Source: a virus. From it: a stretch of 10,912 nt of DNA. Position 1 is the first letter of the stretch; each line of letters starts with the position of its first letter. Both the position numbers and the translations under genes were made by a program. The stretch spans positions 1 to 10,912 of IMG/VR virus record IMGVR_UViG_3300045988_035343. One strand, 5' to 3'. The notes beneath the pieces were generated by a model. It did not search any database. It had not been told where the DNA came from and was given only the letters and a program-made list of their open reading frames with translations. Shown here piece by piece: positions 1-10,912 of this stretch.

Positions 1-105
1 AGCCAAATATGCACAAACACCCCCTTTTTAACATTTCCCAACACATTTTTAACATTCGCCAATAGAGTTTGGCACGCTTTTTGCATAGGCCGTGCCAAAC
101 CTCCA
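1..105. repeat. Left inverted terminal repeat (perfect 105 bp)
   Basis: Nt 1-105 (AGCCAAATATGCACAAACACCCCC...GTGCCAAACCTCCA) equal the reverse complement of nt 10808-10912 base for base, and the match breaks at nt 106. The repeat contains an 11-bp direct repeat TTTTTAACATT at 25-35 and 46-56 (21-bp phasing). It also contains an internal inverted repeat TTTGGCACG (68-76) / CGTGCCAAA (91-99). Confidence 0.97.
70..85 (+). promoter_or_regulatory. Sigma-54-type -24/-12 consensus match (TGGCACG-CTTT-TTGCA) inside the left ITR, pointing inward
   Basis: This is an exact match to the canonical RpoN promoter consensus TGGCACG-N4-TTGCW, with GG and GC at the correct spacing. It is one of four copies of the longer motif TTGGCACGCTnTTTGCATA. 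Promoter function is not shown, and it could instead be an origin or protein-binding element. Confidence 0.4.
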
Positions 106-107
106 CG

Positions 108-147
108 AAGAAACAAAAAATAGCGTACCAAAATAGTTTGGCACGCT
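108..147 (-). terminator. Rho-independent terminator after the last (tail) gene
   Basis: The minus strand reads AGCGTGCCAAA-ctat-TTTGGTACGCT, an 11-bp stem with one G-U pair and a 4-nt loop. It is followed directly by ATTTTTTGTTTCTT. It begins 14 nt after the stop codon of the 607-aa ORF. The pairing is better on the minus-strand RNA than on the plus strand (A-C mismatch). Confidence 0.75.
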
Positions 148-154
148 ATTTGCA
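139..154 (+). promoter_or_regulatory. Second sigma-54-type consensus match (TGGCACG-CTAT-TTGCA), left subterminal, outside the perfect ITR
   Basis: This is an exact TGGCACG-N4-TTGCA match. Its TTTGGCACGCT half also forms the distal arm of the 108-147 terminator hairpin, so its role is ambiguous. Confidence 0.3.
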
Positions 155-161
155 TAGGCCG

Positions 162-1985
162 TTAATCTATAAATACACCGCTTTGCAATAAATTAACAAT
201 TTCGTTGTACTCACTTTTGGGTACATTGTCAATACCATTATTTACAATCTCGTCAAACTTGTAAAAACCTTTTGCACATTGAGAAAGTACAACTTTTTTG
301 TAGTCATTGCCGCGTGTATCGCTGTACTCATTAGTGAAGTAATTAAGCCTTATAAAAGGCTCAAGGCCGTATAAATTTTGTGCGTCCCACCTATCGCTAC
401 CTATTACGCTTGTATCGTACGTTGTGTACAATATATCCGTATTAGGTTGTACGTTATGTAATTGTATCGGTAAATCGTTGCTATCCAACAATTTACAAAC
501 CCCGTCACCGCTAATTACATTAATATCATACACTAACTTTACCGACTTACCGACATAATCAGAAGACAAATTAACAATACCCACGAACGGCAAAAATACC
601 TCGATAAGCATATCTTTGTCTAGTGTGGTGTTATCTTTACGTGGTATTGTGATACCTCCAAAATCCAACGTTATTATATCCTTTTCGGGTAACTCTGCGT
701 TAATTTCGGTATCGTAGTTGCCGCATTTTATTCGGTCCGTGCCTTTTGTAGGTATGTGCGTATAAATACGCTTAATTCTGTTAACGTACTCGCTCAAATC
801 TTGCTCGTACGTTATAAACGTACCGCTTTCCGTGAAGTACCGCTTTTTGCTGAAAGCATCGAGGTTGTCTAATGTCACAACATACACGTTAATAGAACCA
901 TAATTTTTAATACTTGGCTGTACCTCAACTTGCGCCCCTCCACGAAATTCTATGTACTCAGTTTTGGGGCATTCGGTTGCGATGTCAAGTGTTATGCTAC
1001 CTTGTTTGCCGTCTTCGCTCAGCGTGAAGAGTTTCTTTTCCACGCCCCCGAACTCATCAGTATAATGTAATACGGGGGGGTCTTGGTCGGCCTTAAATGT
1101 GCTACCTTCATTTGCGTGTATTGTAACGTTTACTTTGTCGGTCGGTGTGTAATAGGTCGGTATATTTTCGGCCGTGCAATTATATAGGGTATTTTTAACG
1201 GGTATAGCCTTAATATAAGTACCATTAATAACCACCGACACAGAAGTATCTACATTTGTTATTGCTATGGTTGCGGTGTCGCTGCTTTGTATGGTCATAT
1301 TATCAGTATGCGAAGTACCGCCCGTATCTGTGTACGTTACGTTGGTCGCTTGTATAACATAGCCGCTTTGTGTGCCCTTTAGTGTTAGGTTGAAAGTGCC
1401 ATTATCGTACGTATATGTAGCGTTTGTGCCGTCTATGTTATTTGTTATGGTAATGGTAGGTGTACTTTCGGCAACCTCCCCGTTAAGTGTAAAAGTACTA
1501 TTTTTGGCAGCGTCATCTATGGTAAAAGTAGCCTTGCTTTTGTCCGTACTTATTACACCGTTAGCTGTGGAAGTACCCCCAAAACTATCAGTGTACGCAC
1601 AAGTAGGCGCGGTGTTGAATTGATACCCAGTATCAGCGGTAACTACAATGGTATGTACATCACCGCTTACACTATATGTATAGGTAGTGTTTACTATATT
1701 GTTTGTTATCGTTGGTTCTGCGGGGGCATCGGGGTCTACCTTAGTAGCACCCGTTAAACGTATATTTGTACCGCTAACACCATTAAATTTGCAAGTTTTT
1801 AAGTCGGTAGACACTTTGCCCCTTACGCTGCCCCCTCCGAAATCATCATCAAATCGGGCGCGTGGTGTGGTTGTGGTGTCAAACAAAAATCCTGTGTCAG
1901 CGGTACTAACAATATTATACGCCCCTACACTTTCCGTATATGTAAATGTAGTGTGTGGTATTTGGTTTGTTATTATATCTGCCAT
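162..1985 (-). CDS. Tail protein, putative receptor-binding protein: four N-terminal tandem beta-rich repeats plus a C-terminal knob/anchor-like domain
   Basis: The 607-aa ORF is last in the structural module. Residues 1-355 form four diverged repeats sharing TNNI..T.YTY, TADTGY.F and YTD.FGG. The C-terminal ~250 aa contain FLPFVGIVNLSSDYVGKSVKLVYDI, which recalls the central YPY...ITD..G...L region of phi29 gp9-type knob proteins (from memory, not searched). Confidence 0.7.
   Translation of the reverse strand: MADIITNQIPHTTFTYTESVGAYNIVSTADTGFLFDTTTTPRARFDDDFGGGSVRGKVSTDLKTCKFNGVSGTNIRLTGATKVDPDAPAEPTITNNIVNTTYTYSVSGDVHTIVVTADTGYQFNTAPTCAYTDSFGGTSTANGVISTDKSKATFTIDDAAKNSTFTLNGEVAESTPTITITNNIDGTNATYTYDNGTFNLTLKGTQSGYVIQATNVTYTDTGGTSHTDNMTIQSSDTATIAITNVDTSVSVVINGTYIKAIPVKNTLYNCTAENIPTYYTPTDKVNVTIHANEGSTFKADQDPPVLHYTDEFGGVEKKLFTLSEDGKQGSITLDIATECPKTEYIEFRGGAQVEVQPSIKNYGSINVYVVTLDNLDAFSKKRYFTESGTFITYEQDLSEYVNRIKRIYTHIPTKGTDRIKCGNYDTEINAELPEKDIITLDFGGITIPRKDNTTLDKDMLIEVFLPFVGIVNLSSDYVGKSVKLVYDINVISGDGVCKLLDSNDLPIQLHNVQPNTDILYTTYDTSVIGSDRWDAQNLYGLEPFIRLNYFTNEYSDTRGNDYKKVVLSQCAKGFYKFDEIVNNGIDNVPKSEYNEIVNLLQSGVFID
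921..1985 (-). repeat. Four tandem diverged protein-domain repeats (about 91, 85, 86 and 93 aa) within the tail protein
   Basis: Repeat boundaries at aa 1-91, 92-176, 177-262 and 263-355 were found by aligning recurring motifs: ITNxI-xxTxYTY, (V/L)TADTGYxF or KGTQSGYVI, (Y/F)TDxFGG, and a Thr/Ser-rich beta-strand pattern. The repeats are visible at the protein level only; the DNA copies are diverged. Confidence 0.8.
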
Positions 1986-1986
1986 A

Positions 1987-2427
1987 CTATTTATTGCCTT
2001 TAAGTGTTACCATTATAATACTACCTTCTTTGTCAAAAAGTTTTGAAGTAGGAAAGTTTAATATTTCCGTATGTGGGAAAACGTTGAACACGTTACTATT
2101 TACTGATAAATCGCGGTTTGCGTTGTCGCTCTCCACTATTAACGCGGTACTTTGTAAGATAACATCTTTGTACGTCTGTAGTACATCGAGCGACAGAGTA
2201 AGTAAATACGTATTACCACCCACGTATCTAAAATTGTCTACAAAGTAGTATTTTTTGAAATCCTCCAAGTAAACGTAATTAAACCCATACATATTAGGGG
2301 GCATTTGTATTTTTAGCGTTGGATTATGTACATTTAATTCGGGCCGCAAAGCAACGTTAAGCGTACCCAATGGCGTAAGTGCTTTGTTTATCGTGTTCGG
2401 TTGCCCCTTATAGTTATATAAAATCAT
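1987..2427 (-). CDS. Tail knob/tube protein, N-terminal-domain-only homolog (phi29 gp9-like)
   Basis: In the 146-aa ORF, FNYVYLEDFKKYYFVDNFRYVGGNTYLLTLSLDVLQTYKDVILQSTALIVESD resembles the recalled phi29 gp9 segment YIMFQN..GNKWFYAFVTELEF...[26 protein letters not shown]. phi29 gp9 is about 600 aa, so this ORF covers only its N-terminal part. It ends TAG-T-ATG directly before the 607-aa ORF. Confidence 0.65.
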   Translation of the reverse strand: MILYNYKGQPNTINKALTPLGTLNVALRPELNVHNPTLKIQMPPNMYGFNYVYLEDFKKYYFVDNFRYVGGNTYLLTLSLDVLQTYKDVILQSTALIVESDNANRDLSVNSNVFNVFPHTEILNFPTSKLFDKEGSIIMVTLKGNK

Positions 2428-2430
2428 CGT

Positions 2431-2467
2431 AATAAAATTAAAAAAAGGTGGTGTATATTACACCACC
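2431..2467 (-). terminator. Rho-independent terminator immediately after the capsid gene
   Basis: The minus strand reads GGTGGTGTA-ata-TACACCACC (9-bp GC-rich stem) followed by TTTTTTTAATTTTATT. It lies between the capsid gene stop (2489) and the start of the next gene (2427). Confidence 0.85.
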
Positions 2468-2488
2468 TTGAGCCACAATATTAACTAA

Positions 2489-3661
2489 TTATGCAACAAA
2501 GAAAACAACAAAGTTTTCGTTTGTGTCATTAAAATATCCTGCGTCAAACTTGTAATAGTTATTGAAGAACTCGGCCTTAGCGTTATAGTTAGTAGTTACG
2601 CGGCGGTTGAGGTTGCACACGCCCAACGCGTCTCTATCAAACATAACGCCTAACACACCGGTAATATCAACGGGTTTGCCGCCCGTCTCCTTGATTGTGA
2701 TGTGCGCCGTACTCGCAAATTCGTACTTCGTACCGCTACCCTGCCAAAATGGAACACTTTCCGCGTTCGGCAATAGTACCTGCTCTTTGTTGTACGTATC
2801 GCTGTACAGATAAGCACGGGCCGCCTTTTCAAAATCAGAGAGTAACACGACGTGTAAGTTTTCGCGCGGTGTAAAGCGTGGCTTACCTCCAATGTTGAAG
2901 ACGCTAGAAATACTTGCAAGTCTATCAGTGTACAAACCAATTGTATAACTTGCAAACTTGATAAAATCGGGGTCGGTAAGTGCCTTTGCCGCGGTCAAAG
3001 TAGTACCTTTGTTATCGTTGTACAACTTTAGCAAATTGACGCAACGCGCGGTGCTTGCGGTTGTGTAGTCTGTACTAACGTCACCACCAAAGGCCGCGCT
3101 ATCAGCTATTAAAGTTTGCGCAATCATATTGTTAATTGTACGCATTATTAACGCGTCTGTCTTAATGGTAATAGACTTTTCAACCGCGTTATAAATCATT
3201 GAGAGAAACGCGTTTAGTTGCTCAGCGTTAGAAAAACTTTCTTTTACTTGTCGCTCGGTTATAGAAACGGGCACCTCGAAAGTTACTTTGCTATTAAAGA
3301 ACTTTGCCGTAACTTGTGGCTTGTGGAAGACGTCTTGTGAGTAGTCGGTGCCGTCCGTTAGCTCCCAACTTTTGTTTTCCTCGGCTTCGGGTAAGTCCGC
3401 ACTAATCTTTTCAAGCACTGAACCGAACTCCCACGCGTCCATAAGTACAGAGGGGATTTTGCCCGCGTAAGGACGATTGACAAACACAACTTTGCCAATG
3501 TGGTTAACAAGTGATTTAACGTAATTGTCGACTGCATTTTGGTTAAAAACCTCATTGCCCAAATCGACCAACCCCGTTAAATCTTCACTTACAAGTTCAG
3601 ATTTGCCTAAAACCTCTTTAGACACTGAATTAATAAGGGTGTAAATTTGTTTTACTTCCAT
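2489..3661 (-). CDS. Major capsid protein (phi29 gp8-like, HK97-fold class)
   Basis: The 390-aa ORF sits in the structural module with its own promoter and terminator. VDNYVKSLVNHIGKVVFVNRP, NAFLSMIYNAVEKSI and the C-terminal FFNNYYKF resemble the recalled phi29 gp8 segments NDFITSLVDRIGLVVIRQ, SFVSSIINAIYNSAE and YWNYYYHVW. There is no Ig-like C-terminal extension. Confidence 0.82.
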   Translation of the reverse strand: MEVKQIYTLINSVSKEVLGKSELVSEDLTGLVDLGNEVFNQNAVDNYVKSLVNHIGKVVFVNRPYAGKIPSVLMDAWEFGSVLEKISADLPEAEENKSWELTDGTDYSQDVFHKPQVTAKFFNSKVTFEVPVSITERQVKESFSNAEQLNAFLSMIYNAVEKSITIKTDALIMRTINNMIAQTLIADSAAFGGDVSTDYTTASTARCVNLLKLYNDNKGTTLTAAKALTDPDFIKFASYTIGLYTDRLASISSVFNIGGKPRFTPRENLHVVLLSDFEKAARAYLYSDTYNKEQVLLPNAESVPFWQGSGTKYEFASTAHITIKETGGKPVDITGVLGVMFDRDALGVCNLNRRVTTNYNAKAEFFNNYYKFDAGYFNDTNENFVVFFVA

Positions 3662-3662
3662 G

Positions 3663-4232
3663 CTAGTATATTAATTTAGTTATATCATTTATAATTGCAA
3701 AAATAATGCTTTTGCGCCAATTTTGCAAATTAAATTCAATTTCTTTTGTAAGTTCGTCCGTTGGCGATTTTGAGCCAAGGCCCACAACCTTTTGCGTACT
3801 TACAACATCGTTAGTACGTGTATTGTCGTACGTGGTACTATCTTTGTCGTACTCCACGAAATCCGTTGCGTTGTATGGTTTGTTAGACGCTACATTTGTA
3901 TTGTTATTGTTGGCGTTTTCCGTGGTCTTGTCTTCGCGCGTTGTCTGCTGCTGTATAGGGTTAAGTACATCATATTGGGCATTGTACGCATTTGCCACGC
4001 GTACCCAATTATTAACACTCAACGCAATTATATTTTTTATGTACTCATTTGCGTTTGCTTGTGTTATTGTGTTTATGCACTCGCGCTCGCTGTAGTTGAG
4101 TAGTACAAGTGTATCAAGGCCGACACTATCAAGGTCACCGAATATTGCAGCGTATTCCGTGGGGAAATTAGCCTTGAACACCTCCGTAAATAGTCCGTGT
4201 TTAGGGTCGGGGTATAGGTCAATTATTTTCAT
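3663..4232 (-). CDS. Hypothetical virion/assembly protein (scaffold or head-tail adaptor / lower-collar candidate)
   Basis: The 189-aa ORF lies between the portal and capsid genes, overlapping the portal gene by 14 nt and ending 1 nt before the capsid ATG. It has a globular N-terminus, an N/T/D-rich low-complexity centre and a helical C-terminus. No motif was recognised, so the function is inferred from position only. Confidence 0.55.
   Translation of the reverse strand: MKIIDLYPDPKHGLFTEVFKANFPTEYAAIFGDLDSVGLDTLVLLNYSERECINTITQANANEYIKNIIALSVNNWVRVANAYNAQYDVLNPIQQQTTREDKTTENANNNNTNVASNKPYNATDFVEYDKDSTTYDNTRTNDVVSTQKVVGLGSKSPTDELTKEIEFNLQNWRKSIIFAIINDITKLIY
3698..3729 (-). promoter_or_regulatory. 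Bacteroidota-type sigma-A promoter for the capsid gene (TTTG-N20-TATTTTTG)
   Basis: The minus strand reads TTTG-caaaattggcgcaaaagcat-TATTTTTG. This matches the Bacteroides consensus of -33 TTTG and -7 TAnnTTTG with a 20-nt spacer. The -7 element ends 36 nt upstream of the capsid ATG and is embedded in the 3' end of the 189-aa ORF. Confidence 0.6.
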
Positions 4233-5244
4233 TTTCTTCTTCCTTTTCTTCGTCCGTTTCGGTCTCCGTTTCGGTTTCCGTTTCTTTGTCCGTTTCGGTT
4301 TCTGTTACTTCATTTTCTTCTTGTTCAGTATAATTTTGGCTATTATCAGAAGTATTATTTTTATTATCTTCATTTTCTTCGTTTTCGGTTTTATTTTCTT
4401 CTTTTCTTATCGCCCAACTACTTGCAAGTTCAACACTTATTTCCGTTCCAAACATAGCGTTTATTTTTTCCACGGCCTTTTTGCGCTCTTGTAGCATATT
4501 GTCAACGTAGGGGTTTAGGGCGTCCACATTCATTTGCACCTCGGACGTGTTCAGCCGCTCGCGCTTTAAGTTGTAGTTTGCATTCAACCCAATTTCATTA
4601 AACGCCGACGCCTTGAAGTATTGTAATAACTCAATAAGTTGCGTTATTTGGTTGGCGCTTTGCGTGGATATGCTTTGCAAGTTCACGCCCTTAAAAAATG
4701 CGTTTTCGCCTATTACGGAAAAATCGCCCTGCAAAATCTTGTTTATGAAGTCGTCAGCGCTTTGCTTTGTCTTATCATCGCTCGCACTTATTAACATGGT
4801 GATACGAGAGAGTACAGAACACGTGTTCAGCGACAAAAGCGTATCAGAACACAATACACCATATTTACCAAAGATAGGTAAAAGACTATTTGCACCGCTA
4901 TCGTTTTTTATCAATACGCCCTCAACGTCTATTTTATACGACTTGTTGATGTTTAGAAAGGGGTTACTTACAATGTATTCTGTAGCCTCATTGTACGCGT
5001 TTGGCGTACCTCCAAGGCCGCCAGTAAAAGCGTACATTTTGCCTTCTACCTCAGTTACAAAAACATTGCCGTTTGTCTGCAAAAGATTTTCTAAATTGTT
5101 TTGCGGTAACGTATCGGGCAAACCTTTGTACTCAAACATTGCTTGTGTTATGGCTAACATTTTGCGTATGTAGCCATTTACGCTTTTATCTTTGTTTTTT
5201 ATTTGCTCTTGATACTTTAAGTATAAGTTATCTTTCTTTGCCAT
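4219..5244 (-). CDS. Portal (upper collar / connector) protein, phi29 gp10-like, with a ~60-aa acidic low-complexity C-terminal tail
   Basis: In the 341-aa ORF, MFEYKGLPDTLPQNNLE resembles phi29 gp10 LFEWENLPPTINPSFLE, and NLKRERLNTSEV resembles NLEKKERMVTDEV (recalled). The size is typical of Picovirinae-type connectors. The C-terminus is EENKTENEENEDN...TETETDKETETETETETDEEKEEENENN. Confidence 0.88.
   Translation of the reverse strand: MAKKDNLYLKYQEQIKNKDKSVNGYIRKMLAITQAMFEYKGLPDTLPQNNLENLLQTNGNVFVTEVEGKMYAFTGGLGGTPNAYNEATEYIVSNPFLNINKSYKIDVEGVLIKNDSGANSLLPIFGKYGVLCSDTLLSLNTCSVLSRITMLISASDDKTKQSADDFINKILQGDFSVIGENAFFKGVNLQSISTQSANQITQLIELLQYFKASAFNEIGLNANYNLKRERLNTSEVQMNVDALNPYVDNMLQERKKAVEKINAMFGTEISVELASSWAIRKEENKTENEENEDNKNNTSDNSQNYTEQEENEVTETETDKETETETETETDEEKEEENENN
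4254..4301. repeat. Imperfect 12-nt tandem repeat x4 (CCGTTTCGGTYT on the plus strand) encoding the (Thr-Glu)n tract of the portal tail
   Basis: The four units are CCGTTTCGGTCT, CCGTTTCGGTTT, CCGTTTCTTTGT and CCGTTTCGGTTT. On the coding strand they correspond to (ACN-GAA)n. Confidence 0.85.
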
Positions 5245-5434
5245 TTGTCAAAGTTTTTATTAAGGTGCTTAACTCGCTTAAAACTTTGGTGTTATCCTCC
5301 AAAGTTGTTCGTAGGTTGTCAGTTTCTTCTTTGTGCTGCTCATCGTGCTTTGTCATGTAGTAAAATACTATGAGACACATTGCGATAGGAAAACCAACGT
5401 TTGAAATCATTTGTGTAACTTGTGGAATATCCAT
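5228..5434 (-). CDS. Small single-pass membrane protein, holin-like (BhlA/UviB-like architecture)
   Basis: The 68-aa ORF has one N-terminal hydrophobic helix (VGFPIAMCLIVFYYM) followed by a charged, coiled-coil-like tail (KHDEQHKEETDNLRTTLEDNTKVLSELSTLIKTL). A promoter-like element lies just upstream. It overlaps the portal start by 17 nt. Confidence 0.5.
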   Translation of the reverse strand: MDIPQVTQMISNVGFPIAMCLIVFYYMTKHDEQHKEETDNLRTTLEDNTKVLSELSTLIKTLTNGKER

Positions 5435-5454
5435 TTTGTAAGGTTTTATTACTG

Positions 5455-5486
5455 CAAATGTACAGAAATTATTTTATACTTACAAT
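5455..5486 (-). promoter_or_regulatory. Bacteroidota-type promoter candidate (aTTG-N20-TACATTTG) upstream of the holin-like/portal genes
   Basis: The minus strand reads ATTG-taagtataaaataatttctg-TACATTTG. The -7 element is perfect, the spacer is 20 nt as at the other two sites, and the -33 element matches 3 of 4 positions. The -7 element ends 20 nt before the ATG at 5434 and overlaps the ATPase stop region. Confidence 0.45.
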
Positions 5487-6584
5487 GTTCGTTTTGGCAG
5501 AAGTCATTAAATAATTTCGTACAATTTCGCCAACCTCATTATTTTGGTAAAATACTTTATCAGTTGCAAAGTACCGCGCTACTTGACTCTCTAAGTACGT
5601 TGCACTACTTATTAACTTGCGCTTGTAGTTTGGTTTTCCGTTCATCTGTAGGCTGTATATTAGTGCGTTTTCGGGGTCTTTTATTGGGGTGGTCTTCATG
5701 TGGATATATGTAAAATTTTCGCCCCCGTGCTGTATTATGTTACCCTGTAGTATGTATTCGTTAAACACAATATAATACACAAATAACACGTCTTTAGGGG
5801 TGTATTTAGTGGGCAAATGTGGGTACGCTGCCATTTCCCATTTGCCGCCTGTTATCATTTCTAAATTTTGATTGTCAAAGCAAAAATACTTGTTACTTGC
5901 TTTTTGTTTAACAATGGTACTGCAATACTCCACCGCTACAACCGCGCCATGTTGCCCAAACTTGTATATGTCGATAGTGCCTTGCTCCATGTTCGTTACT
6001 TGCTTTAGGCCCATTTCGGTAAAGTAAGGGCAAAACTTGTTTATAGTATTGCCCAACATAAAAACTTTAACGTTGTCGCGCTGTCGTATTATGGTACTTA
6101 ACAAGTTCATAAATAGCATGAATTCATCGGGCAAATAGTATCTACGAGTTAAAAACTCATCAAAAACAATTGTAGTAACATTTGGGTAACTGCTGCTTTT
6201 TTCATGCTCTTGCTCTGACAAGCAAAAGCCATAGCAAAAGGGTGTAGTTTGCGGTACGTACTTCTTTTTTTCGGGGTCGTACTTTGCAAGATACCATTTA
6301 CCACCGATATAAAACACGGAGTTAAATTCTCCCTTTGTTATTTCTTCTATGTAGCCATTTGCCACGTGGTTAGCAAACAGATTTTCTGCACGTTTGCCGC
6401 GTAAATCCTCACGCCACCTACGTATATAGGCCATTTGTTCACCCGTTTGTACGTACTTCTTGATACCATACGCCAAAGTGGCGTATGTTTTGCCGTTGGA
6501 ACGCTCGCCAAATATTATATTGTAATCTGCCTTTTTGTTTAATATGTTGGTGAGTGAGTAAAATTTTATAGGTTCTTTCTTCAT
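5469..6584 (-). CDS. DNA packaging ATPase (phi29 gp16-type encapsidation protein)
   Basis: The 371-aa ORF has Walker A FGERSNGKTYA (phi29: GARGIGKSYA). Walker B YPNVTTIVFDEF is almost identical to the recalled phi29 YPNVSTIVFDEF. GEQMAYIRRW resembles GEQFIYVRRY. The size matches gp16 (332 aa). Confidence 0.93.
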   Translation of the reverse strand: MKKEPIKFYSLTNILNKKADYNIIFGERSNGKTYATLAYGIKKYVQTGEQMAYIRRWREDLRGKRAENLFANHVANGYIEEITKGEFNSVFYIGGKWYLAKYDPEKKKYVPQTTPFCYGFCLSEQEHEKSSSYPNVTTIVFDEFLTRRYYLPDEFMLFMNLLSTIIRQRDNVKVFMLGNTINKFCPYFTEMGLKQVTNMEQGTIDIYKFGQHGAVVAVEYCSTIVKQKASNKYFCFDNQNLEMITGGKWEMAAYPHLPTKYTPKDVLFVYYIVFNEYILQGNIIQHGGENFTYIHMKTTPIKDPENALIYSLQMNGKPNYKRKLISSATYLESQVARYFATDKVFYQNNEVGEIVRNYLMTSAKTNIVSIK

Positions 6585-6593
6585 TGTTCAAAT

Positions 6594-6609
6594 TGTTTCA
6601 CGTGGAACA
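6594..6609. promoter_or_regulatory. 16-bp near-palindrome TGTTTCACGTGGAACA (copy 1), candidate operator
   Basis: It lies in the 28-nt gap between the PolB stop and the ATPase start, 9 nt from the ATPase ATG. Its exact reverse complement occurs at 10252-10267. The core is CACGTG. Confidence 0.5.
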
Positions 6610-6612
6610 TTT

Positions 6613-8799
6613 TCAATCTTTTAGTTTTATACCCTTTAGGTAATTAAGGTACATAACACTTAAAGATAAGTTATAACTTGTTGGCTCTAAGTGTACACCG
6701 CTATTCTCTGCAAATGTACACTTTTTACCCCTATAGTCGGTAACTTCACCATTTATTTTGTAGTCTATGTATGTATGTATGTTTTTTCCTGTGGCCTCGC
6801 ACGGAAATTCTAAATAATTTGTAAACGCGTTAAATATGTTGTCACCATACTTTTTAACAAGATAGGGTATCGCGGCCTTTTTGTTTACACCGCTAATTGT
6901 TAAACTATATTCATAACTTTTACCGCCTACGTTTAGCGCGTTTTCTTCCTGTATCATGTACCGCTTTGCGCCTAACGTCTTAAAACGTTTATATGTGCCT
7001 TCGTAGTCCCAAACGCCTAAAGTTTTAGTAACGCCCTTAATTGTTTCGGGTTCGCATTTGGCAAAAGGTATATTGTGATGTTTACAAGCGGCCTTTAGTT
7101 TGTTATATACTACATTGTTGTACATATCAAAATACCGCTTATGTGCTGCTGCATTCTTTAACTTTATGCTGTCAGTATCGCTGTAAATGTAATCTTGCTT
7201 TGTATCATAGATAGCGGTAAATAAATTGCGCCTTGCATAGGCAGTGACGAAGACGCCCCACGGGTAAAACAAAAAGCGGTTTTTGCTTTCGTTGTACTTC
7301 TGCAACATTTCTGCTTTTTCCGTGTCTGTTAGTGTGTTTTCGTCCCAATGTCCGTCATATACAAACTCATCGCGCAAAGGGTTAGTAACACACATACCGT
7401 AGCAACTATTTAACATCTCCTTGCTATTTAGGTACTCCACTTCTTTGCCTTGCACGCCTTTTAACTTTGTCTTATTTTCGTACAAATCTAAGATTGTGCG
7501 TACAAAATCAGTTGGCAAATAGTCTGCCTTATAACAATACATCGCACCAATACGGACACCTCCCCACGTGTAAAAGTTGCGTATTATGTTGTAGTCTATA
7601 TTTGTTATTGTAGTGGCTACCTTTGCAGCGCAAACTAAACGGCCGTTGTTTTCCACGTGATTTACCTTGACATAACATTTGCTTACGCTTATTGGGTTAT
7701 CCTGTAACTCTTTTGCAAAGATGTTGGTAAATTCAACGTCAAAAATACAAAGGTACTTACTTGTGTAGTACTCAAATTCTTTCATGTTTTTAGGCTGTAC
7801 CCTTACACCTTTCGACATAGGGAATTTTTCCGACACCATAACATAAGGGTAACTACTTGTAAAATCGTAACTTGCAACGTCTTCACAAATTTCGTCTATG
7901 TGGTTAGCGTTTCCATGAGTAAAGCCGCCACTAAACGCCCTTTGTAACATATTAAATTCATGCAGGCCGTTGATAGTTAGCGAGTGGATTAAATTTATAC
8001 ACTGCCAATTACGCTCGGTTTTGCCGTTTACCTTTTTACTTAACATCGCTTTGCGGCAATGCTTACGTACATAACCCGTTTTTGTTAGGGGCAATCTTGT
8101 TATTAACTTGTTTTGCTCTAATTGCTCTTGTATGTAGTTCATAACTACTTTTATATCATTCACGCAATAAAGCAATTCTTTCGGGGTTAGTTCGGTTTTG
8201 GTGTGTCTTATTTTGGTGTAGTCCAAATCTCCAACCATTTTTGCACACTTGTACTTTTGTAGTTGTTCGCCTAACTTTGCAAGGTTGTAGCCGCTTAATA
8301 AGTAGCTGCACCTAAATTCTATGCCTATTGTAGTAGTTGCGTATAATGGTTTGCGTAAGTCAATGCTAAAAACCTTTTCCCACTCAAATAAGGTACGCAA
8401 AAATTGAAATTCATAAGATAAATTGTGTATATACACAATTAGTTTTTTGTTGGTGGATAACTCCAAAGTTTTTTCTATAGTGTTACACATGGCGGTAAAC
8501 TCGTCCCATGTACGGCCTACTATTACGTACCCATTTATACCAAATTGCCACACGTACATAATAGCACACTTTTCCATTTTTACGCCTAATTTGGTGTACT
8601 GCTCGTATGTGTATGTGTTGCCGTCTTCGTCTCGATAAAAACTACTTACTTCAATATCAAAGGCACAAGGGATATTGTAAAACTTACACCCTTTGTTATT
8701 GCTTATTACGTTCTTTTCGTTTACGGCCAACTGCAAAATATCTTTTATGTCGGTGGCCTTATAAATTCTACTATGTTGCGCATATTGTACCTTTTTCAT
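6613..8799 (-). CDS. Protein-primed family-B DNA polymerase
   Basis: The 728-aa ORF carries all expected motifs:
- ExoI: AFDIEVSS.
- ExoII: YIHNLSYEFQF (phi29: FHNLKFDGAF).
- ExoIII: YCVNDIKVV.
- Motif A: DFTSSYPYVM.
- Motif B: KEMLNSCYGM.
- Motif C: YIYSDTDSI.
- KxY: LGAKRYM.
There is room for TPR1/TPR2-type insertions. It sits on an ITR-bounded linear genome. Confidence 0.97.
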   Translation of the reverse strand: MKKVQYAQHSRIYKATDIKDILQLAVNEKNVISNNKGCKFYNIPCAFDIEVSSFYRDEDGNTYTYEQYTKLGVKMEKCAIMYVWQFGINGYVIVGRTWDEFTAMCNTIEKTLELSTNKKLIVYIHNLSYEFQFLRTLFEWEKVFSIDLRKPLYATTTIGIEFRCSYLLSGYNLAKLGEQLQKYKCAKMVGDLDYTKIRHTKTELTPKELLYCVNDIKVVMNYIQEQLEQNKLITRLPLTKTGYVRKHCRKAMLSKKVNGKTERNWQCINLIHSLTINGLHEFNMLQRAFSGGFTHGNANHIDEICEDVASYDFTSSYPYVMVSEKFPMSKGVRVQPKNMKEFEYYTSKYLCIFDVEFTNIFAKELQDNPISVSKCYVKVNHVENNGRLVCAAKVATTITNIDYNIIRNFYTWGGVRIGAMYCYKADYLPTDFVRTILDLYENKTKLKGVQGKEVEYLNSKEMLNSCYGMCVTNPLRDEFVYDGHWDENTLTDTEKAEMLQKYNESKNRFLFYPWGVFVTAYARRNLFTAIYDTKQDYIYSDTDSIKLKNAAAHKRYFDMYNNVVYNKLKAACKHHNIPFAKCEPETIKGVTKTLGVWDYEGTYKRFKTLGAKRYMIQEENALNVGGKSYEYSLTISGVNKKAAIPYLVKKYGDNIFNAFTNYLEFPCEATGKNIHTYIDYKINGEVTDYRGKKCTFAENSGVHLEPTSYNLSLSVMYLNYLKGIKLKD

Positions 8800-9434
8800 A
8801 GTCCGAAGTTATTGAATTCGTCTAATATGCTGTTAATCTCGCTTTCTACTTCGTTTGTTAGTTTGTTGGCCTCGCTTTCAATATTGCTATCTATAGCATT
8901 TTGTAGGCTTACGGCTTCACTTTCAATTTGTTCGCTAGCGTCTCGTGCGCTTTGTTCCAAATCTCCTGTAAAATCTTTGTACTTCATCAAATACTTTTCT
9001 ACAAAATCGCTATCGCTTAGGCTAGTTAGCTTTTCGTTTAATTTGTCGGCCATTAAATTAAATTCTTTGTCTGTAAGGCCGTACGCGGTTTTTAGGTGGT
9101 CATTGTACGTTCGTGTGCCTTGGGCGGTACTCGTAGGCTGTCTTAAAAAAGATACGGCCTTTGCGTACTCTGTTTTTATTTCGTCCCAACTTTGGCCGCT
9201 TACAGAAAATTTGCTATAGCCTTTAATATCTCCTTTGTTTAAGGCTGTTACCGCGGGGCTTAATAACCCTTTGTCTTCAATGTTTTGTATTCTTCGGTTG
9301 GCCTGCTGAAATACGCGTCTTACTTCCTTTCTTAGTTCGGGGCTACTCTCAACGCTTTGTATGATATCCTGCCTTAACTCTGTACGTTGAGTTGCTGTAA
9401 ATACGCTTTGTTTGTATCCTATCTTGTTAGGCAT
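8796..9434 (-). CDS. Terminal protein candidate (replication primer)
   Basis: The 212-aa ORF is immediately upstream of the polymerase and translationally coupled to it by an ATGA overlap, as in the phi29 gene 3 - gene 2 order. It has a basic N-terminal half (ELRKEVRRVFQQANRRIQNIEDKG) and an acidic helical C-terminal half. The pattern is loosely similar to the phi29 TP N-terminal region. No diagnostic motif exists, so the call is positional. Confidence 0.55.
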   Translation of the reverse strand: MPNKIGYKQSVFTATQRTELRQDIIQSVESSPELRKEVRRVFQQANRRIQNIEDKGLLSPAVTALNKGDIKGYSKFSVSGQSWDEIKTEYAKAVSFLRQPTSTAQGTRTYNDHLKTAYGLTDKEFNLMADKLNEKLTSLSDSDFVEKYLMKYKDFTGDLEQSARDASEQIESEAVSLQNAIDSNIESEANKLTNEVESEINSILDEFNNFGL

Positions 9435-9437
9435 AGT

Positions 9438-9479
9438 CTTAAAATTAAAATAGGTAGGTAGTTATATGCTACCTACCTA
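9438..9479 (-). terminator. Rho-independent terminator/attenuator between the early cassette and the replication genes
   Basis: The minus strand reads TAGGTAGGTAG-catataa-CTACCTACCTA (11-bp stem) followed by TTTTAATTTTAAG. The next ATG (9434) follows within 16 nt. The design (hairpin + TTTTAATTTTA + start codon) is the same as the terminator at 2431-2467. Confidence 0.75.
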
Positions 9480-9492
9480 TATTGTTGTATGT

Positions 9493-9846
9493 TTACTTGT
9501 CCTTAAAGGTTATGGTATGGCAGTCTCGGCCGTGGCTCTCGTACTTTCGTACTACAAAACCAACTTTGCCGCCCTTGATGTCATTTACCGCGTCCGTATT
9601 GTTTACGATGTCATTAAATACCTTTGTTAGGTATATAGGCATATCAACACGCTTTTTAATGTCAGACATCACTATCACGACTTTTACACCAAATTTGCCG
9701 CGTGTGAAGTAAAAACCATCGAGCGCGTGTACCTTATTAGGGTCAGCGTTGTATAACTCTTTAAGGCTCGTAAAGTCGTATCCTTTAAGGTTAAACTTAA
9801 AAGGGTTAACATTGCCCTTATTATACGTTTCTGCAAAACTTGTCAT
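9493..9846 (-). CDS. Hypothetical early protein (possible ssDNA-binding protein, by position and size only)
   Basis: The 117-aa ORF is the last gene of the early cassette, just upstream of the TP/Pol genes, where phi29 encodes its 124-aa SSB (p5). It looks beta-rich (FGVKVVIVMSD, GKVGFVVRKYE). No sequence motif was recognised. Confidence 0.45.
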   Translation of the reverse strand: MTSFAETYNKGNVNPFKFNLKGYDFTSLKELYNADPNKVHALDGFYFTRGKFGVKVVIVMSDIKKRVDMPIYLTKVFNDIVNNTDAVNDIKGGKVGFVVRKYESHGRDCHTITFKDK

Positions 9847-9857
9847 AACTGGGTACT

Positions 9858-10028
9858 TTAATTGTTAGCTGTATGTTCGTTGCTTAGGTTCATCAAGAAG
9901 TTTCTAAACTTCGAGATTTTAAGAAGTGTGCGAGTATTCGCGTTAACTTCTTTGGTGGTCATAAGCTGGCCTAATGATGTACAAGCGGTAAATATCGCTT
10001 CATCAAATGCGTTTCTTTCTTCGTTCAT
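9858..10028 (-). CDS. Hypothetical small early protein, 56 aa (absent from the supplied ORF track)
   Basis: Manual translation gives MNEERNAFDEAIFTACTSLGQLMTTKEVNANTRTLLKISKFRNFLMNLSNEHTANN*. Its ATG overlaps the TGA of the upstream 69-aa ORF (ATGA). It fills an otherwise unexplained 178-nt gap in a tightly packed same-strand operon and stops 11 nt before the next ATG. Confidence 0.6.
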   Translation of the reverse strand: MNEERNAFDEAIFTACTSLGQLMTTKEVNANTRTLLKISKFRNFLMNLSNEHTANN

Positions 10029-10234
10029 TTTTTCTGATACTTTAAAAGTGTGTTGTGATTAATATGTGTCGTGTCGGTGGTTACGATTGTCGTGCGGCCG
10101 CTGATGTCGGTTTGTCGGTACATTGAGCAACTTTGCAAAGCCATGCAAAGGATGTAAAGTACAGAGACCAAAACAAGCACATAAGAGATACAAAAAAGAA
10201 ATGTACCTACGCTCTTTAAAATCTTCTTTTTCAT
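10025..10234 (-). CDS. Small membrane-anchored early protein (possible lipoprotein)
   Basis: The 69-aa ORF has an MKKK start and a ~24-aa hydrophobic segment (GTFLFCISYVLVLVSVLYILCMAL) followed by LQSC, which is lipobox-like, although the segment is long for a signal peptide. The tail is Thr-rich. This ORF was preferred over the overlapping alternative-frame ORF 10059-10268. Confidence 0.6.
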   Translation of the reverse strand: MKKKILKSVGTFLFCISYVLVLVSVLYILCMALQSCSMYRQTDISGRTTIVTTDTTHINHNTLLKYQKK

Positions 10235-10251
10235 TTCGTTTTGTTGGTTTG

Positions 10252-10267
10252 TGTTCCACGTGAAACA
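10252..10267. promoter_or_regulatory. 16-bp near-palindrome TGTTCCACGTGAAACA (copy 2), candidate operator
   Basis: It is the exact reverse complement of 6594-6609. It lies in the 48-nt gap between the 83-aa ORF stop and the 69-aa ORF start, 17 nt from the ATG. Confidence 0.5.
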
Positions 10268-10282
10268 TTTATATGATAGGTT

Positions 10283-10534
10283 CTAAACTCGCTTATTGAA
10301 ACGCTGCATATAAAAGTTGTTGGCGTTGTTTCGCTCACTCTCTTTCTTGTGCGAGACTTCAAGCGCCTTTAAGTCGGTGCTTATATTGTCTACTAATGTA
10401 GCCAAGTTGCCGAGCGTTGCCGCAACATCAAAAAGTAATTGCGATTTGTTACGGTCTGCTTCATACTCGACATTGTTACGAGTTACGCGCAAAATACGTG
10501 CAATTTCATCGTACATTTGTGGGGTGGTTGCCAT
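10283..10534 (-). CDS. Hypothetical early protein, all-helical, with a weak helix-turn-helix-like segment
   Basis: The 83-aa ORF is the first sizeable gene downstream of the right-end promoters. YDEIARILRVTRNNVEY loosely fits an HTH pattern (hydrophobic-A-x-x-L-x-V-T-x-x-x-V). This is speculative. Confidence 0.55.
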   Translation of the reverse strand: MATTPQMYDEIARILRVTRNNVEYEADRNKSQLLFDVAATLGNLATLVDNISTDLKALEVSHKKESERNNANNFYMQRFNKRV

Positions 10535-10552
10535 TGTATTATTGTGTTGGTT

Positions 10553-10573
10553 GCCCCACTGGTTGGGTGGGGC
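10553..10573. other. GC-rich hairpin GCCCCAC-N7-GTGGGGC in the right-end leader region
   Basis: The stem is 7 bp and entirely G/C-rich, in an otherwise AT-rich region 19 nt upstream of the 83-aa ORF ATG. On the plus strand it is followed, after 6 nt, by TTTTTATTT. On the minus (sense) strand no U-tract follows. It may be an RNA structure or a plus-strand terminator. Confidence 0.4.
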
Positions 10574-10674
10574 GTTACCTTTTTATTTAGTAAATAATTT
10601 ATCATTAAGCAGGTCAAACGTGTAGTTGGCTACTTGTTTCATAATCGTTTGCTTATTGTTTTATTTTTATATTG

Positions 10675-10706
10675 CAAAGGTAGTTACTTTGTACTCTCTA
10701 TGCAAA
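10675..10706 (-). promoter_or_regulatory. Bacteroidota-type sigma-A early promoter (TTTG-N20-TACCTTTG)
   Basis: The minus strand reads TTTG-catagagagtacaaagtaac-TACCTTTG, an exact -33/-7 consensus with a 20-nt spacer. It lies in the noncoding right-end region and is oriented toward all the genes. Confidence 0.6.
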
Positions 10707-10755
10707 TTTTTAGTCTTAAAATATCTTAAAAGGTTATTTTTTTGTTTTGTCGATA

Positions 10756-10771
10756 TGCAAAGAGCGTGCCA
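10756..10771 (-). promoter_or_regulatory. Sigma-54-type consensus match (TGGCACG-CTCT-TTGCA), right subterminal, oriented with the genes
   Basis: This is an exact TGGCACG-N4-TTGCA match on the minus strand, about 50 nt upstream of the sigma-A-type -33 element. It sits at about the same distance from its terminus (about 141 nt) as the left subterminal copy (about 138 nt). Confidence 0.4.
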
Positions 10772-10807
10772 ATATTATTTTTTAGGTGTTGCTTTTTCTT
10801 GCTATTT

Positions 10808-10912
10808 TGGAGGTTTGGCACGGCCTATGCAAAAAGCGTGCCAAACTCTATTGGCGAATGTTAAAAATGTGTTGGGAAATGTTAAAAAGGGGGTGTTTGT
10901 GCATATTTGGCT
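10808..10912. repeat. Right inverted terminal repeat (perfect 105 bp)
   Basis: It is the reverse complement of nt 1-105. Confidence 0.97.
10828..10843 (-). promoter_or_regulatory. Sigma-54-type consensus match inside the right ITR, oriented inward and with the genes
   Basis: This is the mirror copy of 70-85: TGGCACG-CTTT-TTGCA on the minus strand. Confidence 0.4.

Follow-up and report, generated by a model that had tools for sequence, protein, structure and literature searches.

Why do both ends of a small linear phage genome carry sites that match a promoter of the host's sigma-54 (RpoN) RNA polymerase? Sigma-54 promoters normally form a tightly regulated, enhancer-dependent class of host promoters, and to our knowledge they are hardly ever discussed for lytic phages. 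The question is raised by the IMG/VR virus record IMGVR_UViG_3300045988_035343, of which positions 1 to 10,912, the whole stretch analysed, are called the window here. The window is a complete linear genome of 10,912 bp with a perfect inverted terminal repeat (ITR) of 105 bp (1–105 and 10808–10912, 100% complementary). The reading favoured here, which we hold at about even confidence, is that its four terminal sites would be inward-facing early promoters that dock the host sigma-54 RNA polymerase. Directly observed were the sequence match, its conservation and orientation, the arrays, the covariation of a terminator and the gene-proximal placement of the consensus in other phage contigs; binding, transcription, activator and host are predictions from these.

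Exact matches to TGGCACG-N4-TTGCA were found at 70–85 and 139–154 on the + strand and at 10756–10771 and 10828–10843 on the − strand. These are the four sites that the initial annotation had reported as confined to the termini, and there is no fifth in the window. All of them match at 12 of the 12 specified positions, and the GG and GC are 10 bp apart in TGGCAC-N5-TTGCW. Two of the copies had been attributed to ITR symmetry, and the perfect repeat of 105 bp explains them. The sites and the elements associated with them are the following.

70–85, + strand: sigma-54-type −24/−12 site in the left ITR, facing inward (extended TTTGGCACGCTTTTTGCATAGG, 67–88); exact consensus, 22.7 bits; predicted start near 96.
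10828–10843, − strand: sigma-54-type site in the right ITR, facing inward, in the same direction as all genes; exact consensus and matrix match; predicted start near 10817.
139–154, + strand: left subterminal sigma-54-like site, outside the ITR; exact consensus, 21.4 bits; predicted start near 165.
10756–10771, − strand: right subterminal sigma-54-like site (ATTGGCACGCTCTTTGCATAT), without a hairpin partner; 21.8 bits; predicted start near 10745.
82–97, − strand: outward-facing sigma-54-like site with one mismatch, the palindromic partner of 70–85; 18.7 bits; mirror at 10816–10831 (+).
49–54, + strand: TTAACA upstream element, 21 nt before the T of TGGCAC, read from the sequence; mirror at 10859–10864 (−).

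The sites had been judged to lie beyond chance, and the counts agree. When up to two mismatches to TGGCACG-N4-TTGCA were allowed, 8 matches were found against 0.91 expected, and none of 200 shuffles reached 8. A sigma-54 weight matrix was built on 140 curated promoters (S2 table of PMC12316311). On this matrix the four sites score 22.7, 22.7, 21.8 and 21.4 bits, i.e., at the 97th–100th percentile of the curated promoters, and they are indistinguishable from strong sigma-54 promoters. The ITR copy, at 22.7 bits, outscores all 140 training promoters. The best site outside the termini reaches 9.8 bits, and none of 300 Markov-random windows gave a score above 19.5 bits. A chance origin of the sites is ruled out by the shuffles and the matrix scores together. 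It was also considered that the motif itself might be a −33/−7 promoter of the Bacteroidota type: this was rejected, as the spacing is wrong and true −33/−7 promoters occur elsewhere in the window.

The region of the ITR site is a quasi-palindrome centred on TGCA, and the outward-facing partner site in the ITR is due to this symmetry. The left subterminal site lies in a 35-nt duplicate of 59–93 with 91% identity. A second TTAACA in the window is located at 28–33. At the right end, the predicted starts (~10745 and ~10817) are ~105–175 nt from the first ATG (10641) and 210–280 nt from the first substantial open reading frame (ORF) (10534).

The initial annotation had pointed to relatives as a check on the motif and on its distance from the ends. 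About 150 related genomes were gathered with a 17-mer anchor from the ITR and a polymerase profile. Over these gut-type genomes the motif is conserved in position and orientation, and the distance of the first copy from the end is nearly constant, with a mode of 66 nt. The 16-mer of the left-ITR site (70–85) is almost invariant across all clades. In the ITR of every clade down to ~59% polymerase identity, a nearly invariant TTTGGCACG[C/G]TTTTTG was found; 65% of the distinct variants continue with C and 30% with T. The sites are copies of a composite repeat, TTAACA-N15-TGGCACG-N4-TTG(C/T), which is family-specific and forms a unit larger than the bare −24/−12 core. TTAACA stands at offset −21 from the T of TGGCAC in 148 of the 192 family copies, inner copies among them. 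The GG dinucleotide is retained in 217 of the 218 copies of the family profile, and TTGC is followed by A or T in 95% of copies, as in TTGCW.

These copies form arrays. Each end carries one to five of them in the same orientation, facing inward, at spacings of 27, 43, 48, 58 and 70–72 nt without helical phasing. Such variation in copy number and spacing fits independent units. Terminal copies are inward-facing in 355 cases and outward-facing in 2, and only 33 loose matches were found in the interior over 2.04 Mb. The largest array is that of L273 (IMGVR_UViG_3300045988_014704), which has five tandem copies at each end, located 57, 115, 163, 213 and 261 nt from the end. In addition, genomes L067–L134, a clade at 67% identity, carry GGTT[T/C]GGCACGAAATTTGCACCA, a perfect or one-mismatch sigma-54 consensus, antisense inside the late coding region (− strand, ~5.7–6.4 kb from the late end); the window is without it.

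The direction of the sites has to be seen against the gene layout. The window contains genes for a protein-primed DNA polymerase (PolB), a phi29-type capsid protein, a connector and a gp16 ATPase, and it is read from this gene content as a phi29-like, protein-primed podovirus. Every gene is on the − strand, so that, as had been described, the right-end pair of sites runs in the gene direction and the left-end pair lies antisense to the tail gene. The features concerned are listed below.

1–105: left ITR, a perfect copy of 10808–10912 over 105 nt (repeat search).
10808–10912: right ITR (repeat search).
162–1985, − strand: last late gene, 607 aa, a candidate tail/receptor-binding protein (ORF list; weak similarity to a tail-region protein of Entb_47).
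10675–10706, − strand: Bacteroidota-type housekeeping promoter TTTG-N20-TAccTTTG adjoining the first early ORFs (regular-expression match; kept in relatives of the clade; predicted start near 10665).
118–151, − strand: intrinsic terminator of the late (tail-gene) operon, with a 15-bp stem, a 4-nt loop and a U-tract (terminator scan; DNA fold −13.7 kcal/mol, z −5.7).

In the larger sister clade, inward-pointing genes are present at both ends. This means that inward is the transcriptional orientation at either end; the window clade has lost the late-end genes and kept the mirror copy. The following mechanism may be proposed. The host sigma-54 holoenzyme would dock at the ITR copies, and a host AAA+ activator would remodel it, leading to inward transcription into the early genes. 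The ancestral layout would have had early genes at both ends, and the window would have kept them at the right end only. Transcription from the sigma-54-type sites would supplement the housekeeping promoter adjoining the first gene. The left-end ITR copy is the unavoidable mirror of the right one, and the left subterminal copy is kept since its complement forms the 5' arm of the terminator. Because a housekeeping-type promoter adjoins the first gene, the sigma-54-like sites are not the sole early promoter and perhaps not the main one. The early-promoter idea of the initial annotation is thus supported in part, by motif match, conservation and the comparison with other phages.

Which factor would recognize the sites? 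In a tblastn presence/absence matrix of motif-positive and motif-negative genomes, whose sensitivity is low for ORFs below 60 aa, no window gene tracks the motif. Searches of the small window ORFs against Pfam and PHROGs gave no DNA-binding, sigma or AAA+ activator domain; the sole domain hint was a faint helix-turn-helix-like match in an 83-aa protein (E = 0.12). With neither a co-occurring phage gene nor a regulator domain in the small ORFs, a host factor is indicated. Furthermore, the match is so strong to one specific, information-rich host motif that an unrelated binding site is unlikely.

The same consensus was found in unrelated large contigs by a pattern scan of IMG/VR. The extended form common to these contigs and the family is TTTGGCAC..TTTGCATA, also written TTTGGCA(C/T)..TTTGCATA. 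Since an 11-kb phage and unrelated large contigs have this consensus in common, a host factor is the only thing they plausibly share. In L270 (IMGVR_UViG_3300028888_000074, 116 kb) and likewise in L293, almost every gene is preceded by the consensus, which lies on the coding strand 50–73 nt upstream of an ATG at 7 of 8 sites in the former and 4 of 5 in the latter. It is followed by a conserved A/T-rich leader, AACAATTAAAATT, that lacks a Shine-Dalgarno sequence. Such a pattern suggests that a phage uses sigma-54-type promoters throughout its genome. In L250 the five-base spacer differs among tandem copies and TGGCAC and TTGCA are fixed, which can be read as the signature of sigma-54 recognition. 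Unusual groupings of high-scoring sigma-54 sites mark L213, L225, L250 and L290, all large viral contigs. The arrays of L250 and L290 are tandem, with each copy preceded by GAGTTATGTAAA, and are divergent from a sigma-70 promoter. L213 has one site ahead of each gene and an antisense site facing back into the 3' end of the gene. In L225, ~25 sites are packed within 750 nt of non-coding DNA (5677–6428).

The nearest cultured relatives of the window, at 42–46% PolB identity, are the ~11-kb Astrithrvirus group (Salmonella astrithr/Astrid, Pectobacterium DU_PP_III, Acinetobacter Phanie) and Vibrio phage K58 g2. None of the cultured enterobacterial astrithrviruses carries the motif. The ITR of K58 g2 contains a weak version, TTGGCACGATTATTGAA, 72 nt from the end, with 14.0 bits (24th percentile). 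Further in than this element, the same ITR has an inward-facing 12/12 sigma-70 consensus, TTGACA-16-TATAAT, and the DU_PP_III ITR has an inward-facing TTGACG-17-TAGAAT. ITRs in this lineage thus seem normally to hold inward host promoters, which favours the promoter reading. These promoters resemble the window sites in lineage, in location within the ITR and in direction toward terminal early genes. They differ in being of the sigma-70 type (TTGACA/TATAAT), single rather than arrayed, and placed at the inner ITR edge. It should be mentioned that the deposited K58 g2 record (L060, 7263–7494) links both genome ends via a run of N; the ITR is 232 bp.

The host is presumed from signals of another kind. 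Promoters of the form TTTG-N19-21-TAnnTTTG, the housekeeping type of Bacteroidota, are located upstream of the first early ORFs (10706–10675, −) and of the capsid gene; apart from the early one, the positions recorded are 3698–3729 (−) and upstream of 5434 (−). No Shine-Dalgarno sequences were found upstream of the window genes. From this promoter type and the lack of Shine-Dalgarno sequences, we infer that the host is a member of the Bacteroidota. For the motif-bearing gut podoviruses as a group, promoter and translation signals likewise point to Bacteroidota. An exact-protein look-up toward host identification returned zero matches. All 27 Bacteroidia genomes tabulated in PMC12316311 have rpoN, and sigma-54-dependent chaperone genes have been reported in B. 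thetaiotaomicron (PMC12316311).

When compared with established sigma-54 promoters, such as E. coli pspA (ATTGGCACGCAAATTGTAT) and glnAp2, the window sites have the same TGGCAC-N5-TTGC(W) core and the same GG/GC spacing. They score at the top of the curated range, and the tolerated variants (TTGT, TTCGC, TGGCCC) are common to both. In contrast, the phage sites, whose dependence on sigma-54 is predicted, stand in tandem inside the ITRs of a linear genome; the genes have a promoter of their own and are more than 100 nt away. The sites also have a fixed upstream TTAACA, and no enhancer or activator was recognized.

A number of observations weigh against the promoter reading. In the window, the housekeeping −33/−7 promoter stands between the right-end sites and the first gene, transcription from the left-end sites would run antisense into the tail gene at 162–1985, and only ~65 bp of DNA lies upstream of the outermost site. 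Neither an AAA+ enhancer-binding protein nor a sigma factor was found among the window genes, and no enhancer-like repeat or sequence was recognized in the window. In the family, the sites invariably take the outermost position and keep ~100 nt or more from every start codon, and relatives interpose CACGTG palindromes between sites and genes. The near-constant distance of the first copy from the end hints at an end-related function, and so does the TTGGCACG-N4-TTGA of K58 g2 at 72 nt from its end. Conservation of the spacer (G[C/G]TTT) and of the fixed TTAACA goes further than sigma-54 requires. Avoidance of the sigma-54-critical positions by substitutions is only a trend (15.25 vs 14.34 ± 0.65 bits, p = 0.08). 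The Bacteroidota host is itself deduced, and the titles of metagenome-assembled genomes assigned to relatives span many phyla, so that binning is uninformative. Furthermore, T replaces the C of the −12 GC in 18/114, 28/70, 26/30 and 4/4 copies from the outermost to the innermost. This last change is not disqualifying, because TTGT is found in strong E. coli promoters (pspA and pspG) and TTCGC in glnA; TGGCCC and TGGCAA also occur in the curated set.

Several of these points would be explained if the copies were iteron-like sites for replication or packaging at the genome ends, with the likeness to sigma-54 promoters coincidental or an exaptation. We regard this alternative as less likely, though a serious rival. 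The binder would be a phage protein (terminal protein, polymerase or a small early DNA-binding protein) or a host factor acting at the protein-primed origin, and the arrangement would resemble the NFI/Oct-1 sites of adenovirus ITRs or packaging A-repeats. Direct repeats in one orientation that are restricted to the ITR, with almost no outward copies, are consistent with such a role. So are the steady position of the first copy, the similar element in the otherwise unrelated ITR of K58 g2, and a unit longer than a sigma-54 site with its fixed TTAACA and conserved spacer. The ITRs of motif-less relatives carry other clade-specific short repeats (CACGTG palindromes and other direct repeats), and the sites are distant from genes that have their own promoter. 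However, a match of 21–23 bits to one host motif is very unlikely to arise by chance, the motif has no co-varying phage gene, the spacings are not helically phased, and the consensus is gene-proximal in unrelated phages. The motif is also missing in relatives at ≤57% polymerase identity (L142, 57% PolB, and L148–L210) and in clades with Firmicutes-type signals. L142 and the more distant relatives have homologous terminal-protein and PolB genes and replicate without it. Since relatives may share the replication genes without having the motif, it is better regarded as an accessory host-factor site than as a core origin element.

In the auxiliary origin of the adenovirus ITR, sites for the host factors NFI and Oct-1 stand at a fixed distance from the end of a protein-primed linear genome. 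The window likewise is a protein-primed linear genome whose ITR has, at a fixed end distance, candidate sites for host DNA-binding factors; in the phages, the motif is missing in some relatives that have the replication genes. The window and phi29 are both phi29-like podoviruses whose ends combine the control of replication with that of early transcription, but phi29 has an ITR of 6 bp, sigma-A promoters and non-sequence-specific p6 binding. Neither a p6 homologue nor a packaging RNA (pRNA) was detected in the window.

A broader proposal, which we consider unlikely, is that small protein-primed gut phages without an activator load arrays of top-affinity sigma-54 sites on both ends for a non-ordinary use, as part of a wider and so far undescribed habit of phages. 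The candidate roles are recruitment of a host factor to the origin, as with NFI/Oct-1 in adenovirus, transcription-driven DNA entry, and titration of sigma-54 off the host stress regulon with rising genome copy number. The wider habit is suggested by the gene-proximal, antisense and 'sponge-like' clusters of the consensus in the unrelated large phage contigs.

Another reading, in which sigma-54 docks non-productively, seems distinctly unlikely. Stable closed complexes at the ends would then be a roadblock or insulator, a sink titrating host sigma-54 as the genome multiplies, or an anchor for entering or replicating DNA. The very high predicted affinity, with 2–10 sites per genome, would suit this role, as would the lack of an activator or enhancer in the window, the antisense direction at its left end and the non-promoter placements in L213, L225 and L250. 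On the other side, no precedent was found in the literature searched. In addition, a sink or anchor does not need the strictly inward orientation, although descent by duplication could explain it.

The subterminal copies lie outside the ITR, and the initial annotation had taken both as conserved independently. That is not simply so: covariation of an RNA hairpin holds the left copy in place. The terminator hairpin at 118–151 stands on the − strand directly after the stop codon of the tail gene, and the reverse complement of 139–154 is its 5' arm; the terminator scan and the covariation confirm the stem described at the left end. In nine genomes the hairpin has 15 pairs with 100% of cells paired, and three of the pairs show compensatory double changes. 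None of 500 shuffles paired as well, and slid registers also failed to match. A G·U pair is possible on the − strand only. The full pairing, the compensatory changes and the strand-specific G·U pair show that the left subterminal copy is maintained as an arm of the late-operon terminator. As in other intrinsic terminators, a stem-loop and a U-tract come right behind the stop codon that ends the last late gene, and compensatory changes support the stem; this terminator differs from them in that one arm is a recycled copy of the ITR repeat.

The right subterminal copy behaves differently. It is unstructured (−0.7 kcal/mol, z +1.4) and is substituted in five of the eight close relatives that have both ends, the variants being TTGT, GGCCCG, GGCAAG and TTCGC; they still score at the 48th–75th percentile of the curated promoters. 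Within the ITR, the proposed pairing of TTTGGCACG with CGTGCCAAA does form a DNA hairpin (−11.3 kcal/mol, z −4.4). In the family, however, an inverted partner arm follows 45 of 146 outermost copies and 0 of 127 inner copies, and conservation rests on the 5' 16-mer and not on pairing. A motif that works through DNA or RNA hairpins alone, as had also been suggested, is therefore highly improbable: this account is largely refuted in general in spite of the ITR hairpin and the terminator arm, and it stands only for the copy at 139–154. When the ends were scanned against Rfam, neither a known RNA family nor a phi29-type pRNA emerged; the sole match, to gyrA, was below threshold (E = 0.4).

Other observations on the genome should be mentioned. 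More than 560 relatives of the window are present in IMG/VR, many from samples of the human-gut type; megablast of the window against GenBank phages gave zero nucleotide-level matches, and the 607-aa tail protein has a weak match to Enterobacter phage Entb_47 only. Illumina adapter remnants at the ends of related contigs (L004, L006, L010, L137) abut AAATATGCAC, and in another clade AAAGGTAC. For this reason, bases 1–4 of the window (AGCC) may be an assembly artefact, with the true terminus at base 5; a genome starting with AAA would suit sliding-back initiation.

A 16-bp palindrome, TGTTCCACGTGAAACA, occurs at 6591–6609, where 28 nt separate the polymerase gene from the packaging-ATPase gene, and at 10252–10270, upstream of a 69-aa early ORF. 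Two to four copies of it are present in the ITRs of relatives (L011–L013, L099, L138, L142, L185 and others), including clades without the sigma-54-like motif. A conserved phage regulator probably uses it as its operator. A G+C-rich hairpin, GCCCCAC..GTGGGGC, is located at 10552–10574, just downstream of a 19-codon ORF (10582–10641) that comes after the early promoter. Its T-run is on the + strand and thus opposed to all genes; it is possibly a leader or attenuator, or a terminator of antisense transcripts. A perfect palindrome with a 13-bp stem lies at 9450–9480, between a 117-aa ORF and the putative terminal-protein gene. Five 12-nt tandem repeats at 4221–4304 encode an acidic, Glu/Thr-rich tail at the junction of the connector and 189-aa genes.

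The literature searched contained no description of sigma-54-type sites in the terminal repeats of phages, nor in phi29-like phages, astrithrviruses or phages of Bacteroidota. The signal is of a known kind in a new arrangement and context, and its dependence on sigma-54 is a prediction. If the sites work as promoters, abundant phages of the human gut, and apparently some unrelated large phages, would couple their early programme to host sigma-54. In Bacteroidota this factor has been reported to control chaperone and stress genes. Infection would then be linked to host physiology, and the motif would provide a sequence handle for predicting the hosts and early promoters of uncultured gut phages. 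It would also pose the puzzle of how an activator-dependent polymerase is switched on by an 11-kb phage that has no activator of its own. Should the sites act at the protein-primed origin instead, they would represent the bacterial equivalent of NFI/Oct-1 in adenovirus.

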